Below, piece by piece: positions 19,799 to 28,166 of a stretch of 64,000 nt of DNA (the stretch's first letter is position 1; each line of letters begins with the position of its first letter). The position numbers were made by a program, and so were the translations under genes. Origin of the DNA: Acidobacteriota bacterium (GTDB lineage Bacteria; Acidobacteriota; UBA890; WLXD01); assembly GCA_965205505.1 (NCBI GenBank), contig CBDBHB010000006.1, forward strand, positions 416,001 through 480,000, written 5' to 3'. Below the pieces are notes generated by a model, which saw only the letters and a list, made by a program, of their open reading frames with translations, was not told the origin of the DNA and made no database searches.

Positions 19799-20857
19799 GT
19801 GACGAACGTCGTCGAAACTGACTCGCAGCGCCGGACCCGCAAGCTTGCTGGCTTGCTCCAGATGGGCTTCGAGTGCGTCGAGGGACCGCTCACCACCGAG
19901 GCTGAGATGCTTGCCGATGGTTGGCGGGTCTCGCAGTCAGTGCCGGCGATGGGAACCGTGGTCTCAGTGTCTGCGTTTCATGAGTCGCGCCTGCTGTCGG
20001 AGGAAGCGATTGGACGTGGGCTGGCGGAGATGGACCGGCTCATAGCGATCCTCAATCGGCACGAGCCGACCTCTGCGATGGGGGTGCTCAACGACACCGG
20101 AGCGCTGCGATCGGCCCCCGATGAGCTCGTCTACCTGCTACGACGAGCTCGTGGGTTCGAGCTGCTCAGCGCCGGTGCCTTCGACATCGCCGTGGCGCCA
20201 GTAGTTGACCTGCTGCGCCAGCGGCGTGAGTCCGGCGACGGCCGCCCGCTGAGTAATGGCGAGCTCGGCGAAGCGCTGGCCCGGGTGGAAGCGGGCCGCG
20301 TCGATGTCGATGGGCGAGGCGTTCGATTTCGTGGAGAGCGCACCACCGTGACGCTCGACGGTATGGCGAAGGGGTTCATCGTCGACCGCATGGCGCACGC
20401 GCTGGAAGCGTGTGGCGCCGACGGCTACCTGATCAACGCGGGCGGCGATATCCGCACGGCCGGAACTCGCGATGGACGGGCGCCCTGGAGCGTGACAGTA
20501 CAGGACCCCGACAAAGGAGGCGAGTACCCTGACGTGCTGCGGTTGCACGACGGCGCCGTCGCCACTTCGGGGAGTTACGAGATCTATTTCGATCGCCAGC
20601 GCACGCTGCACCACATCATCGACCCGACCGGCGGATGGCCGGTACACACCAGCAGCGTGACCGTGCGTGCGGCCACCGCCATGACTGCAGACGCCCTGGC
20701 GACAGCAGTTTTCGTGGCCGGGCCGGAGAAAGGCATGCCGCTGGTCGCTTCGATCCCCGGGGCTGCCTGCCTGATCGTTGCCGCTAACGGCTCTATCCTC
20801 AAATCCGCCGGATGGACGAACCGGCCCGAGATCGCCGCACCCCCTGGAGACCGATGA
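19799..20857 (+). CDS. apbE: FAD:protein FMN transferase
   Basis: AMGT, GAFDI, LDGMAKG, NAGGD, ATSGSYE, HHIIDP and ADALATA motifs; no lipobox visible. Confidence 0.92.
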   Translation: MTNVVETDSQRRTRKLAGLLQMGFECVEGPLTTEAEMLADGWRVSQSVPAMGTVVSVSAFHESRLLSEEAIGRGLAEMDRLIAILNRHEPTSAMGVLNDTGALRSAPDELVYLLRRARGFELLSAGAFDIAVAPVVDLLRQRRESGDGRPLSNGELGEALARVEAGRVDVDGRGVRFRGERTTVTLDGMAKGFIVDRMAHALEACGADGYLINAGGDIRTAGTRDGRAPWSVTVQDPDKGGEYPDVLRLHDGAVATSGSYEIYFDRQRTLHHIIDPTGGWPVHTSSVTVRAATAMTADALATAVFVAGPEKGMPLVASIPGAACLIVAANGSILKSAGWTNRPEIAAPPGDR

Positions 20858-21345
20858 CCCATTCGACATCGCAGTACCGGAGTGGACAGAGGCTGGCGCT
20901 GGTGGCCCTGCGGATGCTGGTTGGCTGGCACTTGCTGTACGAGGGCATCGCCAAGCTGCAGAATTCTTACTGGACTTCGGCCGGGTTCGTTTCCGAGGCG
21001 CAGGGGCCGTTTGCGGGGTGGTTCCTGTGGTTGGTGTCGGAACCGGGGCGCCTACAGCTGGTCGACCTGCTCAACAAGTGGGGCTTGACGCTCATCGGCC
21101 TGGCCCTGGTCGTCGGTCTGGGGTCACGCACGGCGTCGTTGCTGGGCATGGTCCTGCTAGGACTCTACTACGTCGCCAACCCGCCCCTGCCCGGACTGGA
21201 CACGGCGATTCCCGCCGAGGGGTCGTACATGATCGTCAACAAGACCTTGATCGAGATTGCGGCGCTGTTGGTCATCAGGGCCTTCCCTACCGATGACGTG
21301 GTGGGCCTCGGTCGACTTCTGCGACGCGAGAGGGAATCGGCATGA
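20854..21345 (+). CDS. DoxX/DoxD-like membrane protein
   Basis: LRMLVGWHLLYEGIAK and EGSYMIVNKTLIE motifs; ATGA overlaps on both sides. Confidence 0.85.
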   Translation: MTHSTSQYRSGQRLALVALRMLVGWHLLYEGIAKLQNSYWTSAGFVSEAQGPFAGWFLWLVSEPGRLQLVDLLNKWGLTLIGLALVVGLGSRTASLLGMVLLGLYYVANPPLPGLDTAIPAEGSYMIVNKTLIEIAALLVIRAFPTDDVVGLGRLLRRERESA

Positions 21346-22958
21346 GCATGGACGACAACGAGCAGACGATCCACGACGCCGGCAACGCGCCCGACAAGAG
21401 CAGAGTTCACGGCAAGGCGCTCGACCGCCGCGACCTCTTCAAGGGGCTGGCATCGCTGCCGGTTCTCGGGACGCTCGGATGGGGGGCGTGGCGTAAGAAA
21501 ACGCTTGCTGACGAGCGCCGAAACCAGGTGCTGGCCGAGCTCGGGGTGAGCGGTGATGCGCCAGCGATCATCGACCACGCACAAAGCCGGCCACCTGCCG
21601 ATCGCATCAACCTCGGGATTATCGGCTTCGGCGGCCGGGGCGAGACGCTGATGCGCGGCGCGGGGTTCGCTCACCCTGAAGTTACCGAGGAGTGGCGGCA
21701 GGCCGCGGCCGAGGATCCGCGTAACACTCGACTCTCCGAGTTCATGCTGCAGGGCGATCTGAACGTGGCGTTTACCGCCGTCTGCGACGTGTTCGACGTG
21801 CGCGCCGAACGTGCTATCGCAGCGTCAGCTAACGAGACGCGCCCGGGCGGTGACTCGGGCTCCCGGCCCGCCTACCGGTTCCGCCACTACGAGGAGCTGC
21901 TCAATTCCCCCGATGTCGACGCCGTGCTGATCGGCACCCCCGATCACTGGCATGCGCCGATGACAATCGCCGCCGCCGCTGCCGGCAAGCACGTCTACTG
22001 CGAGAAGGCGATGACGCGCACCGAGGAAGAGGTCCTGCCGATGGTGGAGGCAGTCAAGGCCTCGGGCATCAAGTTCCAGCTCGGTCACCAGAATCGTCAG
22101 CTCGAGAGCCACGAAAAGGCGCGCGAGATCATCGAGAAGGAGATCCTCGGCAAGGTGACGCTGGTGGAAACAACCACCAACCGTAATGATCCCTGGGGCG
22201 CTTGGGTATGGGACATTCATCCCGAAGGCAACCCCGACACCATCGATTGGGAGCAGTTCCAGGGCAACGCCGCCAAGCAAGTGCCTTTCAACCTCGAGCG
22301 GTTCTTTCGATGGCGCTGCTGGTACGACTACGGCACCGGGTTGGCGGGCGATTTGCTGTCGCATGAGTACGATGCCCTCAACCAGATCATGAACCTGGGA
22401 ATCCCGAAGTCTGCGGTCGCCTCGGGCGGCGTTTACTTCTTCAAGGATGGCCGCGATGTGCCCGATACCTTCCAGGTGGTCTACGAGTATCCGGAGCGCG
22501 ACCTTACCGTCGTGTACAGCGCCACGCTGGCGAGCGGACGCGGACGCGGCAAGGTGTTCATGGGTCACGACGCCGCGATGGAAGTCGGCAGCGGCGTGCG
22601 GGTGATCGCCGACGCGCAGTCGACACGCTATGCGGATCTGATCGAGCGCGACGTTGTTGATGTCGATCGGGCTCTGCTTACGTATCGACCAGGCTTCAAG
22701 GGGCTCGACGCCGTGACCACCGCCACCGAGGAGTACTTCGCCAGTCGCGGATTGTTATTCACCTACCAAGGCGGCCGACGCGTCAGCACGCATTGGCTGC
22801 ATATCAAGGACTGGCTCGATACGGTGCGCCATGGCGGCGAGCCGAGCTGCAACATCGATCGCGGCTTCGAGGAAGCGATGACCTGTCATATGGCCACGAA
22901 GTCCTACCAGCTCGCCCGCAGGGTCGAGTGGGACCCGGTCCAGCAGAAGATCGTGTAG
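21342..22958 (+). CDS. Gfo/Idh/MocA oxidoreductase with Tat-like N-terminus
   Basis: DRRDLFK plus a hydrophobic stretch; IIGFGGRG, TPDHWH and HVYCEK motifs; DAVTTAT near the C-terminus. Confidence 0.92.
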   Translation: MSMDDNEQTIHDAGNAPDKSRVHGKALDRRDLFKGLASLPVLGTLGWGAWRKKTLADERRNQVLAELGVSGDAPAIIDHAQSRPPADRINLGIIGFGGRGETLMRGAGFAHPEVTEEWRQAAAEDPRNTRLSEFMLQGDLNVAFTAVCDVFDVRAERAIAASANETRPGGDSGSRPAYRFRHYEELLNSPDVDAVLIGTPDHWHAPMTIAAAAAGKHVYCEKAMTRTEEEVLPMVEAVKASGIKFQLGHQNRQLESHEKAREIIEKEILGKVTLVETTTNRNDPWGAWVWDIHPEGNPDTIDWEQFQGNAAKQVPFNLERFFRWRCWYDYGTGLAGDLLSHEYDALNQIMNLGIPKSAVASGGVYFFKDGRDVPDTFQVVYEYPERDLTVVYSATLASGRGRGKVFMGHDAAMEVGSGVRVIADAQSTRYADLIERDVVDVDRALLTYRPGFKGLDAVTTATEEYFASRGLLFTYQGGRRVSTHWLHIKDWLDTVRHGGEPSCNIDRGFEEAMTCHMATKSYQLARRVEWDPVQQKIV

Positions 22959-23029
22959 CGTTCGCCGGTTCGAGGGCGACGAGGAACATCGGCTCGTCGA
23001 TAGACATCCGCCAGGGGCACGTGACACGC

Positions 23030-24235
23030 ATGCACGGCAAGTTCCAGCTCGGCTTGATGATGTTCCTGCAGTACGCCATCTGGGGCGCGTGGGCCCCGGT
23101 GTTGTCTGCGTATCTGCTCGCGGACCTGAGCTTCGAGGGCACGCAAGTCGGGTTCGTCTATTCACTCTTGCCGATGGCCACGATCATCGCTCCGTTCGTC
23201 GGCGGGCAGATCGCTGATCGCTACTTCGCCTCCGAGCACACCATCGCCTTTCTGCAGCTGTCGGGCGGCGGGGTGCTGCTATACGCGGCGACGCTGACCG
23301 ACTACCGGTCGCTGGTATTGGTGATGTTCGTGTATTGCCTGTTGTATGCGCCGACGTTGGCGCTTACCAATTCGATCGCCATGAGCAACCTCGACAACTC
23401 CGAAGAGGGGTTCGGTCGGATCCGGGTCTGGGGAACGATCGGTTGGATAGCAGCGGGGTGGATGCTCTCGGCCTGGCGCGCCGGCACCGGCGGAATGGTG
23501 GTGGCCAGCGACATGTTCCTACTCGCCGGCGGCTTCTCCATCGTCATGGGGTTGCAGTCGTTTCTGTTGCCGCATACGCCGCCGCGGCGTGACAGCCGCA
23601 CGCCCTGGCCGTTTCTGGAAGCGCTGCGCATGCTCCGAGATCGCGAGTTCGCCATCTTCATGTTGATCTCGTTCGTCGTTGCCACCGAGCTGCAGTTCTA
23701 CTATGTGCTTACTGCGCCATTTCTTCAGTCGTCGGCTATCGGCATTTCACCGGCGCGCGTGCCGGCCGTCATGACGGTCGCTCAGATCGCCGAGATCTTC
23801 GTGCTGGTGGTGATGCTGTCGTGGTTTCTCAAGCGTTACGGAATGCACTCTACGCTGGCGCTGGGCGTCATCGCGTGGCCGGTGCGCTACGTGATCTTCG
23901 CCATTGGCACTCCATGGTGGCTGGTGGTGGCGTCGTTGACCCTGCACGGTTTCTGCTACGTTTTCTTTTTCGTGGCGGCGTTCATCTACGTTGACTCGGT
24001 GGCGCCGACGAGCATCCGGGCCTCGGCCCAGAGTCTCATCGCCATCGTCACCTTGGGGGTCGGCAGCTTCGTCGGCAGCAACTTTGCCGGCTACGTGCAA
24101 AGCTGGTTCACCGTTGACGGGGCGACCGATTGGTTCAACGTGTTTCTCGTACCCTGCGCCGTGACGGTGTTGTGCGCCGTAGCGTATCTCTTGTTCTTCA
24201 AGGACCAACGCGCGGCGCAGCCGGTTGCCGTTTGA
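23030..24235 (+). CDS. MFS transporter, nucleoside:H+ symporter family
   Basis: MMFLQYAIWGAW, GQIADRYF and IRVWGTIGW motifs, about 12 TM helices. Confidence 0.9.
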   Translation: MHGKFQLGLMMFLQYAIWGAWAPVLSAYLLADLSFEGTQVGFVYSLLPMATIIAPFVGGQIADRYFASEHTIAFLQLSGGGVLLYAATLTDYRSLVLVMFVYCLLYAPTLALTNSIAMSNLDNSEEGFGRIRVWGTIGWIAAGWMLSAWRAGTGGMVVASDMFLLAGGFSIVMGLQSFLLPHTPPRRDSRTPWPFLEALRMLRDREFAIFMLISFVVATELQFYYVLTAPFLQSSAIGISPARVPAVMTVAQIAEIFVLVVMLSWFLKRYGMHSTLALGVIAWPVRYVIFAIGTPWWLVVASLTLHGFCYVFFFVAAFIYVDSVAPTSIRASAQSLIAIVTLGVGSFVGSNFAGYVQSWFTVDGATDWFNVFLVPCAVTVLCAVAYLLFFKDQRAAQPVAV

Positions 24236-24256: not shown

Positions 24257-25507
24257 ATGACTCAACGACGACTCGGTGTAGGGATTATCGGTGGCGGCTT
24301 CGTCGGCCGCTTCCACATCCGTTCCTTCATCGGCGTCCGCGACGCCGATGTCCTCGGCGTGGTCAGTCGAAGCGGTGAGACCGCGGAGGAAGCGGCCGCC
24401 CTAGCGCGCCAGCTTCGCGTCGGCGAGGCGCGGCCGTTCGCTTCGATTGCCGAGTTGGTTGCCGATCCTGGTATCGATGCGGTGTGGATCTGCTCGCCCA
24501 ACTTCACCCGTATCGAAGTCATGGAGGAGATCGTCGACGCGGTGAAATCGGGCAAGGGCAAGTTGCTAGGTGTAGCGTGCGAAAAACCGCTGGGGCGCAA
24601 TACCGCCGAGGCGATGCGCATGGTCGAGCTGGTGCAGGAGGCCGAGCTGCTCGACGGCTATCTGGAGAACCAGTTGTTTACGCCGAGCGTGGTACGCGGC
24701 AAGCAGATCGTCTGGGAGCGCGGCGCTGCCCTCACGGGACCACCCTACCTGGCACGGGCGGCGGAAGAGCACGCTGGCCCGCACATGCCCTGGTTCTGGT
24801 CGGGTGAGTTGCAAGGGGGCGGGGTGCTCAACGACATGATGTGCCACTCCGTGGAGACAGCGCGCTTTCTGCTGACGCCGCCCGAGGCGCCCCGCGATGC
24901 GCTGACGCCGGTTCGCGTGACCGCCTACACCAACTGCTTGAAGTGGCAGCAGCCGCACTACGCCGAGCAGCTGGCACGAGCGAGCGGAGGACAGAACGAC
25001 TACCAGACCCGCCCGTCCGAGGATTTCGCGCGTTCGCTCGTCGAGTATCGCGACCCGGACGGCAACCCGCGCATCGTCGAGACCACCACATCGTGGTGCT
25101 TCGTCGGCGCTGGGCTGCGGCTCACGATGGAGCTGCTCGGCCCCGAATACTCGATGTCAGTGAACTCACTCGACATGGGCCCCAAGCTGTTCTTCTCGAG
25201 GCAAGTGGTCGGGACGGCAGGCGAGGACCTGGTAGAGAAGCAAAACGCGGAAGTTGGCCAGATGCCGGTGGTGGCCGACGAAGAAAGCGAGTATGGCTAC
25301 GTCGGTGAGAATCGGCACATGGTGCGGTGCTTTCTCGACGGCCGACGGCCGGACGAGACGTTCGACGATGGTCTCAACGTCACGGAGTTGCTGATGACCG
25401 CTTATATGAGTGCCGAGCGTGGCGCTGCCATCGAGTTTCCGCCGCCGGACCTGGCAGGCTTCGTGCCGGCCGTGGCGCGCGGCGAATGGAACCCCAAGAG
25501 CGAATAG
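24257..25507 (+). CDS. Gfo/Idh/MocA oxidoreductase (no signal peptide)
   Basis: GIIGGGFVG, CEKPL and GGGVLNDMMCH motifs. Confidence 0.9.
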   Translation: MTQRRLGVGIIGGGFVGRFHIRSFIGVRDADVLGVVSRSGETAEEAAALARQLRVGEARPFASIAELVADPGIDAVWICSPNFTRIEVMEEIVDAVKSGKGKLLGVACEKPLGRNTAEAMRMVELVQEAELLDGYLENQLFTPSVVRGKQIVWERGAALTGPPYLARAAEEHAGPHMPWFWSGELQGGGVLNDMMCHSVETARFLLTPPEAPRDALTPVRVTAYTNCLKWQQPHYAEQLARASGGQNDYQTRPSEDFARSLVEYRDPDGNPRIVETTTSWCFVGAGLRLTMELLGPEYSMSVNSLDMGPKLFFSRQVVGTAGEDLVEKQNAEVGQMPVVADEESEYGYVGENRHMVRCFLDGRRPDETFDDGLNVTELLMTAYMSAERGAAIEFPPPDLAGFVPAVARGEWNPKSE

Positions 25508-26632: not shown

Positions 26633-27556
26633 TCAGGACATCTCGCTGGCAAGCTCGTTGCGGACTCGCTCCAGCAGTGCCTTGGTGGCGCGAATCCCAT
26701 CGGGCTCCGACAAGCGCTCGCCCTCGTACTCAATGCCCACCCGGCCGCGATACCCGGCGTTGCCAACGATGCGCAGCAGGCGGTCATAGTCGAGCCGGAC
26801 CTCGTTGCCGTCGGGTCCGAAATCGTACGACTTGGCGCTCACGGCGCGCGCCATGGGCATCAGCTCCTCGACACCGAGGTAAAAGTCATACCAGTCATCA
26901 TCGGCGATTCGGAAGTTGCCGAAGTCCGGCAGGGTCCCGAGCCCCGGATGGTCGCCGCGACGGATCGTCTCGGCCAGCCACTTGCCATTGCTCGATAGGC
27001 CGCCGTGATTCTCGACCAGCACGCTCAAGCCATGGTCCGAGGCGAACTCCGCCAGGCGACGCAACCCATCTGCGGCCAGCCGGCTCTGCTCCTCCCAGGT
27101 GCCCTCCGACGCTGCGTTCACGCGGATGCTGTGACAGCCAAGGAAGGCGGCAGCCTCGACCCACTTGTGATGGTTCTCGATTGCCTGAGTACGTACTGCG
27201 GCGTCCGGATCTCCGAGGCGTCCCTCGCGGTCGCACATGATTAGCAGGCTGCGAACGCCCTCACCGTCGCAACGCGCCTGCATCTCCTGCAGGTAGGCTG
27301 CGTCGCGTGCCCGTTCGAAGAAGAAGACGTTGACGTACTCGACCGCGTCAATGCCGAACGTGGTGCGGGCTCCATTGATGAAGTCGAGATGGTCGAGCTC
27401 ACCCGCGAGCAGAGCCCGGTGCTGCGACCACTCCGCCAACGAGATGCTGAACCACGAGTCGCTCGCGCGGCCGTGCGCAGAAATGGCAGGAAGCGCCGCG
27501 ACCGCCCCCAGTGCTGCTGACTGCCCCAGGAATCGCCGGCGTGTCGTGGGCTTCAT
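26633..27556 (-). CDS. Tat-exported sugar phosphate isomerase/epimerase (xylose isomerase-like TIM barrel)
   Basis: TRRRFL Tat motif; ENHGG, LPDFGN, SAKS and GIEYEG motifs. Confidence 0.9.
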   Translation of the reverse strand: MKPTTRRRFLGQSAALGAVAALPAISAHGRASDSWFSISLAEWSQHRALLAGELDHLDFINGARTTFGIDAVEYVNVFFFERARDAAYLQEMQARCDGEGVRSLLIMCDREGRLGDPDAAVRTQAIENHHKWVEAAAFLGCHSIRVNAASEGTWEEQSRLAADGLRRLAEFASDHGLSVLVENHGGLSSNGKWLAETIRRGDHPGLGTLPDFGNFRIADDDWYDFYLGVEELMPMARAVSAKSYDFGPDGNEVRLDYDRLLRIVGNAGYRGRVGIEYEGERLSEPDGIRATKALLERVRNELASEMS

Positions 27557-27578
27557 GATCGAGCCTTCTCCGAGAGGC

Positions 27579-28166
27579 TCAGTCGCCGAGTCGGCTGTCG
27601 AGCCGCAACCAATGCGACGGTACGCCCAGGCGGCGCGCCTCCGCTCGCAGGGCACTTTCCAGGGCACGCCAGGCTCCTAGCTCCCGGCGATTCGCTGTCA
27701 GGCGGGCGGAGCCGTATCCGCTGCCTGCTCCGGGGCGGCTGCGTGTACGCTGCTGCCCAGCTTCCAGGCTCGAGATCTGCTCGCGCAGCCAAGCCATCTT
27801 CTCCTTCCAGTAAGCGCGGTCAGCCGGATCGAGATAGAAGCTCTCGGGCTGAGGCGCAGACGAGGCGATCGGGCTTCGTCGCTCGTGAACGCGCGTCGCG
27901 GGTCGCCGCGCCGGATTGCCATCAGCGGGTCGGGCGTTGATCGTGCGGGGCACAGACCCCGGAGAGCGACCGTCGTCGCGCCGGATCTGGCGCACGAGGT
28001 CGGCCGACATCGCCACCTCGACGCCGTAGGCTCGAAAAACCACCTTGCCGTTCTCGATGCGCGCATCCTCGACCTGCAGGACACGGCCGTTCGCAAGCCA
28101 GACCGTGTCGGCGGCGGCCGGTACGGTCACACTGGCGACGACCAGAACGAGGAGGAAGGTTCGCAT
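27579..28166 (-). CDS. Secreted hypothetical protein
   Basis: Signal peptide, DTVWLANGR, C-terminal EARRLGVPSHWLR. Confidence 0.65.
   Translation of the reverse strand: MRTFLLVLVVASVTVPAAADTVWLANGRVLQVEDARIENGKVVFRAYGVEVAMSADLVRQIRRDDGRSPGSVPRTINARPADGNPARRPATRVHERRSPIASSAPQPESFYLDPADRAYWKEKMAWLREQISSLEAGQQRTRSRPGAGSGYGSARLTANRRELGAWRALESALRAEARRLGVPSHWLRLDSRLGD

Follow-up and report, generated by a model that had tools for sequence, protein, structure and literature searches.

The window analysed here, a 64,000-nucleotide stretch of an Acidobacteriota genome (contig CBDBHB010000006.1, positions 416,001 to 480,000), contains three consecutive genes that encode an ApbE-family flavin transferase, a DoxX-like membrane protein and a dehydrogenase of the Gfo/Idh/MocA family (hereafter Gfo). 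This operon is a well-supported candidate for a new class of ApbE substrate, in which flavin mononucleotide (FMN) would be attached to the Gfo protein itself, at Thr462 of the segment DAVTTAT. The initial annotation of this DNA had proposed that ApbE flavinylates the dehydrogenase and that the electrons pass on to DoxX and quinone. Our results supported this proposal in part: the conservation of the motif, the pairing of Gfo with DoxX and the occurrence of a canonical DAVSGAT sequence in relatives agreed with it, whereas no co-variation between the motif and the adjacency of apbE was observed.

In the proposed mechanism, the operon products would constitute a dehydrogenase for sugars or glycosides that is held at the membrane on its periplasmic side and carries two cofactors. 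The Gfo protein would fold around nicotinamide adenine dinucleotide (NAD) in the cytoplasm, the signal-less ApbE would place FMN through a phosphoester on Thr462 in the loop G-L-D-A-V-T-T-A-T-E-E-Y-F, and the loaded protein would then be exported by the twin-arginine translocation (Tat) system, with its uncleaved twin-arginine helix keeping it anchored beside the four-helix DoxX protein. During catalysis a sugar hydroxyl, most likely the C3-OH of a glycoside, would be oxidised and the hydride passed to the bound NAD+; the tethered FMN would reoxidise the NADH, and through DoxX the electrons would reach the quinone pool of the membrane. The resulting keto-sugar would pass to the DUF1080 hydrolase, the triosephosphate isomerase (TIM)-barrel enzyme, the major facilitator superfamily (MFS) importer and the cytoplasmic Gfo reductase encoded nearby. 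Taken as a whole, this mechanism is one that we cautiously favour. Flavinylation at Thr462 is reasonably probable, and quinone as the acceptor is a plausible but tentative assignment.

A flavinylation-type motif in a distinct Gfo subfamily

The three genes lie on the + strand, and both the list of open reading frames (ORFs) and the reading of the junctions confirmed the previously described coupling through ATGA overlaps (ATG 20854-56 and TGA 20855-57 at the apbE/doxX junction; ATG 21342-44 and TGA 21343-45 at the doxX/Gfo junction). In the Pfam comparison, the Gfo protein matched PF01408 with 52.7 bits, and also PF22725. Its N-terminus carries LDRRDLFKGLASLPVLGTLGWGAW, and the arginine pair of the Tat motif DRRDLFKGLASLPVLG (R29 and R30) was invariant in 40 homologues, so that the twin-arginine/hydrophobic N-terminus noted initially was confirmed. 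We read residues 27-50 as a Tat-type signal anchor, for which both export and non-cleavage are predicted; the source genome has three TatC matches. In the same 40 aligned members G95, G97, E221-K222 and D337/H341 were likewise invariant, and GFGGRG was located at the first strand-helix of the AlphaFold2 model of Gfo. Foldseek returned many Gfo-family structures with a probability of 1.00, the nearest solved chains (8tdf/8tdh, DgpA 7xr9, levoglucosan dehydrogenase 6a3f and 4gqa) being sugar-oxidising Gfo enzymes. The best NCBIfam model, NF058561 (BT_2158_fam), scored 114.8 bits against a cut-off of 750 and covered residues 177-387 only; the window protein is a relative, and not a member, of the BT_2158 glycoside 3-dehydrogenase family. 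It is assigned to a distinct subfamily of about 535 residues that is related to the glycoside 3-dehydrogenases.

When 8000 candidates were scored in a word-based search, 6209 proteins were found at E ≤ 1e-10, and the 120 best matches listed were 62-100% identical to the window Gfo. A profile search, which also took in more distant relatives, yielded 883 hits at E ≤ 1e-30, each standing for a cluster at 50% identity. The named sources include Gemmatimonadota, Acidobacteriota, Bacteroidota, Calditrichaeota, Marinimicrobia and Deferribacteres. Gene neighbourhoods were compared at 80 loci from metagenome-assembled genomes (MAGs) of Gemmatimonadota, Acidobacteriota (including Vicinamibacteria and Aminicenantes) and Bacteroidota, and at 12 additional loci with flanks of 1.5 kb; the latter came from 401 genomes sampled in the phylum of a Bacteroidales MAG, among which the search returned the main Gfo subfamily only. 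In a genome of the same genus as the source (G128:C15:1853096-1854656) the Gfo gene was found in two frames, matching profile positions 6-287 and 284-524, which could reflect a frameshift or a fault in the assembly; apbE remains next to it, at 1855240-1856064.

Translation placed DAVTTAT at the residues given initially (Table 1). The motif D-x-[VI]-[TS]-[STG]-[AP]-[TS] was kept in 247 of 248 full-length homologues (249 proteins were considered and one was dropped for length), and it was present in 80/80 loci and in all 12 additional ones. D456, T459 and T462 were invariant among the 40 aligned sequences. Two of the 248 proteins fell outside the search pattern, P0132 with DGISSAT and a different tail, and P0371 with DAVASAT, and the remaining 246 entered a tree on which the changes at each motif position were counted. 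Position 1 was D in 245 proteins and N in one (minimum of 1 change), position 5 was S in 185, T in 55 and G in 6 (10 changes), and position 6 was A in 225 and P in 21 (9 changes). Position 4 was T in 216 and S in 30 (at least 15 changes), and position 7, the predicted acceptor, was T in 228, S in 18 and nothing else (at least 13 changes). Over the whole set of 248, serine or threonine was found at position 4 in 247 and at position 7 in all. This toggling between T and S across repeated substitutions implies that the hydroxyl at the predicted acceptor position has been kept. The ApbE motif is given as D-x-x-[S/T]-G-A-[S/T], with Ser accepted for Thr, and a G-to-A change in it leaves about 50% of the flavinylation, according to a 2025 review (PMC12052999). 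The variation in the Gfo motif is what the ApbE motif allows. The canonical form, DAVSGAT, was found at the homologous place in six relatives (P0137, P0138, P0312, P0347, P0357 and P0379).

In the genome's stop-to-stop frames (5.80 million residues), D..[ST][ST][AP][ST] was counted 124 times and D..[ST]GA[ST] 42 times, which corresponds to a chance of about 1.5% for such a motif per 538-residue protein. A single occurrence is therefore only mildly unlikely, and it is the conservation that carries the weight. At ≤38% identity (P0142, P0144, P0150, P0153, P0166 and P0175) the insertion was kept and the D/T/T residues were lost, and in Gfo relatives of about 430-470 residues the motif-bearing insertion was absent. 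Among the 27-36% identical Tat-Gfo relatives in the window's phylum, DoxX neighbours were found at 0 of 20 loci and the motif in 0 of 26 Gfo-like ORFs; these 20 contrast loci represent the shorter relatives, which are more distant than the group that has the insertion without D/T/T. The distant relatives without the motif are thus also without DoxX, and the motif travels with DoxX.

Pairing with DoxX and the proposed route of the electrons

The window DoxX protein scored 22.0 bits against the PF07681 cut-off of 23.6, just below it, and all 42 orthologous DoxX partners compared matched the same family at E ≤ 0.01 (best 1.4e-10). The doxX gene was directly upstream of Gfo in 79 of the 80 loci, the exception (L008) having no upstream DNA, and in 12/12 loci of the sample around the Bacteroidales MAG, that is, in 91/92 loci overall. 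DoxX is an obligate partner of this Gfo subfamily. Moreover, the two proteins were fused, with DoxX N-terminal, in 15 protein clusters that form one clade at 68-100% identity. The fused forms contain the four DoxX helices, then the twin-arginine helix and then the Gfo domain; from this order of helices and the positive-inside rule, in our own reading of the sequences, the Gfo domain would lie outside the cytoplasm. It is very likely that DoxX and Gfo form a complex.

In the AlphaFold model of a natural fusion (P0099), the long helices of DoxX span residues 18-44, 72-95, 99-116 and 132-151, and several polar residues in or near the helices (H26, E30, K34, D71 and N74) were invariant or nearly so. 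DoxX was considered as a possible ApbE client itself and was rejected, since its conserved YW[TS]SAG ends in G and not in S/T, and the Ala is lost in Bacteroidota.

DoxD is linked to quinone, and 12 of the 42 DoxX partners also matched the DoxD family PF04173. The resemblance to the DoxD/DoxA thiosulfate:quinone oxidoreductase lies in a small multi-helix protein of the DoxX/DoxD group being paired with an oxidoreductase, whereas the partner enzyme and its substrate are unrelated and the window protein falls just under the DoxX cut-off. A redox or quinone role of DoxX is drawn from family association only, which weighs against the last step of the mechanism. Gfo could also be flavinylated and pass its electrons from FMN to another acceptor, such as oxygen, a soluble or membrane cytochrome or an external acceptor, with DoxX acting without redox function in anchoring, assembly or substrate channelling. 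The lack of any cofactor or quinone site assigned to DoxX, and of any solved structural relative among those found for the DoxX partners, fits such an arrangement, as does the use of several unrelated membrane partners by known ApbE systems (Meheust et al. 2021, PMC8238504). However, the near-universal pairing (91/92 loci) and the existence of fusions argue against it, as do the matches of 12/42 partners to a thiosulfate:quinone oxidoreductase subunit family; in addition, the conserved polar residues exceed what a passive anchor needs, and Gfo has an anchor helix of its own. We consider this alternative quite unlikely. The steps from NADH through FMN and DoxX to quinone are ones that we only infer, and a respiratory periplasmic sugar dehydrogenase specified in full, with permanently bound NAD(H) reoxidised by FMN that a dedicated signal-less ApbE has attached in the cytoplasm to a swinging-arm loop, both cofactors exported by Tat, and the electrons reaching quinone via DoxX, seems to us doubtful.

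The flavin transferase, its probable compartment and its possible clients

The operon ApbE covered profile positions 1-265 of 266 in PF02424 (224 bits, E 3.2e-66; Pfam), and its blocks ATSGSYE, HHIIDP and TADALATA aligned with identical blocks in the solved ApbE/Ftp chains 1vrm and 4xdt. These blocks would correspond to Ser241, His257 and Asp285 of the Vibrio enzyme. The initial annotation had remarked that this ApbE has no lipobox, which was borne out: no signal peptide, lipobox, hydrophobic N-terminus or transmembrane segment was found in the protein. Where the N-termini of the operon-linked orthologues were readable, they were short and charged, resembling ARKLSALAxLGFERV, and lacked a hydrophobic core. 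The SQRRTRK of the window protein was not kept in orthologues, and we therefore dismissed it as a Tat signal of ApbE. It is very improbable that the operon protein is instead a pyrophosphatase of flavin adenine dinucleotide (FAD), a flavin-trafficking protein or another non-transferase, with any flavin bound non-covalently. Some ApbE/Ftp homologues do hydrolyse FAD instead of transferring FMN (PMC4767422, PMC4436053), but these are periplasmic lipoproteins, whereas the operon ApbE carries no export signal, and the conservation of T/S at the acceptor position suggests that the flavin is attached covalently.

The source genome encodes a second ApbE (G000:C9:1573027-1574148, which is L084:8028-9149; PF02424 E 1.1e-82) with an N-terminal hydrophobic anchor, located directly 3' of complex I genes (fused NuoE/F, NuoG-like, NuoH and NuoI-like). 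In Klebsiella pneumoniae a lipoprotein ApbE coexists with a cytoplasmic one, and the signal-less enzyme flavinylates a cytoplasmic fumarate reductase (PMC12052999); a signal-less ApbE beside an exported one thus has a precedent. Because the operon ApbE has no signal peptide and Gfo has a twin-arginine N-terminus, the simplest reading is that flavinylation probably precedes Tat export.

Over the 80 loci, apbE was on the same strand and directly 5' of DoxX in 41, from at least two phyla, and in five more, of the Aminicenantes type, a lipoprotein-type ApbE was encoded divergently at a distance of about 1.3 kb. No apbE was found at the other 34, 12 of which have less than 1 kb of upstream DNA. Hence ApbE was linked in 46 of 68 informative loci, and the 22 unlinked ones were mostly from Bacteroidota. 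It had been anticipated that the motif would be conserved in apbE-linked homologues and would co-occur with apbE. The former was the case at every one of the 46 linked loci (80/80 overall), whereas the latter was only partly so, since the 22 unlinked loci carried the motif too and no co-variation was seen. In genomes without an adjacent apbE, 10/10 of those checked have apbE elsewhere. Furthermore, among 301 genomes sampled from the window's phylum, 26 encode a Gfo of this subfamily and every one of these 26 has ApbE, which is present in 186/301 overall; of the three genomes in the window's order that have no such Gfo, two (G163 and G215) have no ApbE. This co-occurrence of Gfo and ApbE at the genome level is suggestive only.

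Several observations weigh against the flavinylation of Gfo or limit the evidence for it. The genomes behind the 26/26 count are related and amount to only about 3-4 independent lineages. The motif was unchanged at the 22 loci (with at least 1.2 kb of upstream DNA) and at the 12 loci with 1.5 kb flanks that have no adjacent apbE, and adjacency therefore cannot discriminate. ApbE also adjoins motif-less Tat-Gfo genes in 2 of the 20 distant loci (L088 and L089), so its adjacency to a Gfo gene is not specific to the motif. The consensus Gly is absent from the window motif, which has Thr at position 5 as had been noted initially, and from 97% of the family (242/248). The whole Gfo protein is highly conserved, with a mean column identity of 58% over the 40 aligned members, and thus conservation of the motif alone is weak evidence. 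In the AlphaFold2 models, the predicted local distance difference test (pLDDT) score was below 50 at residues 452-478 of Gfo and at 615-634 of a natural DoxX fusion, and the models therefore do not show where Thr462 lies with respect to NAD or DoxX. A complex prediction of Gfo 22-538 with DoxX, NAD and FMN gave a score of 0.19 (mark 0.32) and spoke neither for nor against the proposal. Finally, ApbE looks cytoplasmic and its target, the Gfo domain, periplasmic, a point that the initial annotation had not considered, and we know of no documented Tat substrate that is flavinylated before export.

These observations bear on another reading of the operon, in which DAVTTAT simply belongs to a loop of the structure or active site and carries no flavin. 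Gfo would then work like glucose-fructose oxidoreductase or DgpA, with its NAD(P) recycled in a ping-pong manner by a second sugar, DoxX would anchor or scaffold the enzyme, and the neighbouring ApbE would serve another client. Ping-pong recycling of the cofactor was proposed for the Tat-Gfo BT2158 by Liu et al. (PMC8121099), and the persistence of the motif in 34 loci without adjacent apbE, the presence in L088 and L089 of ApbE next to Gfo genes that lack the motif, the absence of the consensus Gly in 242/248 and the conservation of Gfo throughout its length are all in line with it. However, it leaves unexplained why positions 4 and 7 changed only between T and S over 15 and 13 substitutions, why DAVSGAT occurs at the same place in six relatives, and why, at 41 loci from two phyla or more, apbE shows translational coupling with DoxX-Gfo; besides, neither the operon nor, in the Pfam searches, the genome yielded another candidate client. 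We regard this reading as unlikely and prefer flavinylation of Gfo by the operon ApbE.

The search for other clients covered a source genome that is 96% complete. FMN_bind (PF04205) was matched neither in Gfo nor anywhere in this genome, which extends the earlier statement that no standard FMN-bind protein is nearby. DUF2271 was not found in the genome, and nor was DUF3570, but since the DUF3570 search matched in no control genome either, this negative carries no information. An NqrB/RnfD-like match on contig C8 was rejected as a classical client, being sub-threshold (19-24 bits) and without Nqr/Rnf context. On the same contig, outside the window, a 544-codon frame (G000:C8:21442-23073, - strand) has a lipoprotein-type signal, VVAAGC, and right after the Cys the segment GGRAADDATGATAAYFE, a canonical D-x-x-T-G-A-T that continues, like the Gfo loop, with xxYF; this protein may be a client of the membrane-anchored second ApbE.

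In the five Aminicenantes-type loci (L015, L018, L043, L049 and L054) a NusG_II (PF07009) protein with a Tat signal accompanies the lipoprotein ApbE; this protein may be the real ApbE client there and would to that extent count against Gfo. In L018 (3272-4964, - strand) the NusG_II protein contains SLLTTAS, and the pair is divergent, about 1.3 kb upstream of DoxX-Gfo. As regards the distant loci, L088:4819-8482 has ApbE beside a motif-less Tat-Gfo, together with a PF16490 Oxidoreduct_C protein and a fucosidase, and L089:5314-9313 has ApbE with two Tat-Gfo genes, one of which contains VRTGAS at residue 328, as well as DUF6807 and an MFS transporter. The link of ApbE with periplasmic Gfo enzymes may be a more general one.

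Pathway context and relation to known systems

The features of the operon and its neighbours are collected in Table 1. No sigma-70-like promoter match was found by a simple scan of the 153-bp gap 5' of apbE. Upstream of it, an 815-residue MacB/FtsX-type permease (PF12704, PF02687; 17198-19645, - strand) appears unrelated to the operon.

Table 1. Coordinates of the operon, its motifs and the neighbouring genes in the window.
Feature	Position	Strand	Pfam match
ApbE-family FAD:protein FMN transferase, 352 residues	19799..20857	+	PF02424 E 3.2e-66
DoxX-like membrane protein, 163 residues, four predicted helices	20854..21345	+	PF07681 22.0 bits
Gfo/Idh/MocA NAD-binding dehydrogenase, 538 residues	21342..22958	+	PF01408 + PF22725
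Twin-arginine motif and hydrophobic segment, Gfo residues 27-50, then RKK	21420..21491	+	
Rossmann glycine motif GFGGRG, Gfo residues 95-100	21624..21641	+	
DAVTTAT candidate flavinylation motif, Gfo residues 456-462, Thr462 predicted acceptor	22707..22727	+	
MFS transporter, nucleoside:H+ symporter type, directly 3' of Gfo	23006..24235	+	PF03825 E 4.8e-103
Second Gfo/Idh/MocA protein, 416 residues, no signal, probably cytoplasmic	24257..25507	+	PF01408 E 4e-18
DUF1080 / 3-keto-disaccharide hydrolase family, N-terminal hydrophobic segment	25534..26265	+	PF06439 E 8.8e-35
Xylose-isomerase-like TIM-barrel protein, twin-arginine N-terminus TRRRFLGQSAALGAVAAL	26633..27667	-	PF01261 E 3.8e-25

Of the 16 loci that were annotated, 10 have a DUF1080 and/or a TIM-barrel gene in the company of DoxX-Gfo, DUF1080 in L003, L010, L018, L057, L062, L065 and L074, and the TIM-barrel family in L003, L018, L062, L067, L071 and L074. 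The MFS transporter occupied the same position in L003, L010, L014 and L018, and an equivalent second Gfo gene of 415-416 residues was present in L010, L014 and L018. Together, the TIM-barrel protein, the DUF1080 protein, the MFS transporter and the signal-less Gfo look like a complete periplasm-to-cytoplasm route for 3-keto-glycosides, and the exported Gfo would most likely act on a glycoside. In Bacteroides thetaiotaomicron, the DUF1080 protein BT2157 hydrolyses 3-keto-trehalose, and the Tat-exported Gfo BT2158 was proposed to make 3-keto-disaccharides with bound NAD(P), its electron acceptor being left open (Liu et al. 2021, PMC8121099). The DUF1080 hydrolase and TIM-barrel neighbours of the window operon resemble those of BT2156-BT2159 in the same study. 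The window Gfo also shares with Zymomonas glucose-fructose oxidoreductase, BT2158 and DgpA a Rossmann domain, a C-terminal alpha/beta domain and a twin-arginine N-terminus. Unlike these Tat-exported Gfo enzymes, it is longer by about 90 residues, the insertion with the motif among them, and has a predicted uncleaved anchor in place of a cleavable signal as well as an obligate DoxX partner, which is absent at the 20 loci of shorter relatives.

With the known ApbE-dependent extracytosolic systems (NqrC/RnfG FMN_bind, DUF2271, DUF3570, FMN_red and Flavodoxin_4), the operon has in common the combination of apbE, a protein with the motif D-x-x-[ST]-x-A-[ST] and a membrane partner, and the acceptor Thr/Ser is strictly kept in the window family. 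It differs from them in that the carrier is an NAD-binding Gfo fold and not of the FMN_bind or flavodoxin type, position 5 of the motif is usually S/T in place of G, the partner is DoxX and the ApbE is signal-less. These comparisons suggest that what is new in relation to known ApbE-dependent extracytosolic electron transfer is the fold of the carrier and the membrane partner. The resemblance to Klebsiella pneumoniae consists in a genome with one exported and one signal-less ApbE, the latter serving a dedicated reductase in that organism (PMC12052999), whereas the Klebsiella client is cytoplasmic and has FMN_bind and the client proposed here, which bears a twin-arginine anchor, would first be loaded and then exported. 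Neither 'Gfo' nor 'DoxX' occurs in the main texts of Meheust 2021 and Huang 2024, although the supplementary cluster tables of the former could still list such clusters, and DoxX is not among the membrane partners named in the accessible parts of these two articles. Our literature search, which mostly did not extend to subscription journals, found no article that joins ApbE or DoxX with Gfo-family enzymes. The ApbE survey of Meheust et al. 2021 removed genes without a predicted signal (PMC8238504), and this may be why the system went unseen.

If the proposal is correct, an NAD-dependent dehydrogenase fold would join the short list of ApbE substrates, and natural motifs could have Ser or Thr in the place of Gly, a point of importance when whole genomes are searched for flavinylated proteins. 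The operon also offers a possible electron outlet for periplasmic Gfo-type glycoside 3-dehydrogenases, the acceptor of which was left open for BT2158 (PMC8121099). For DoxX, a very common membrane family, it provides a concrete biochemical hypothesis which, if true, would give the family its first defined redox role. The system is widespread, and if the mechanism holds, it would represent a previously undescribed route by which sugar oxidation outside the cytoplasm feeds into the respiratory chain.

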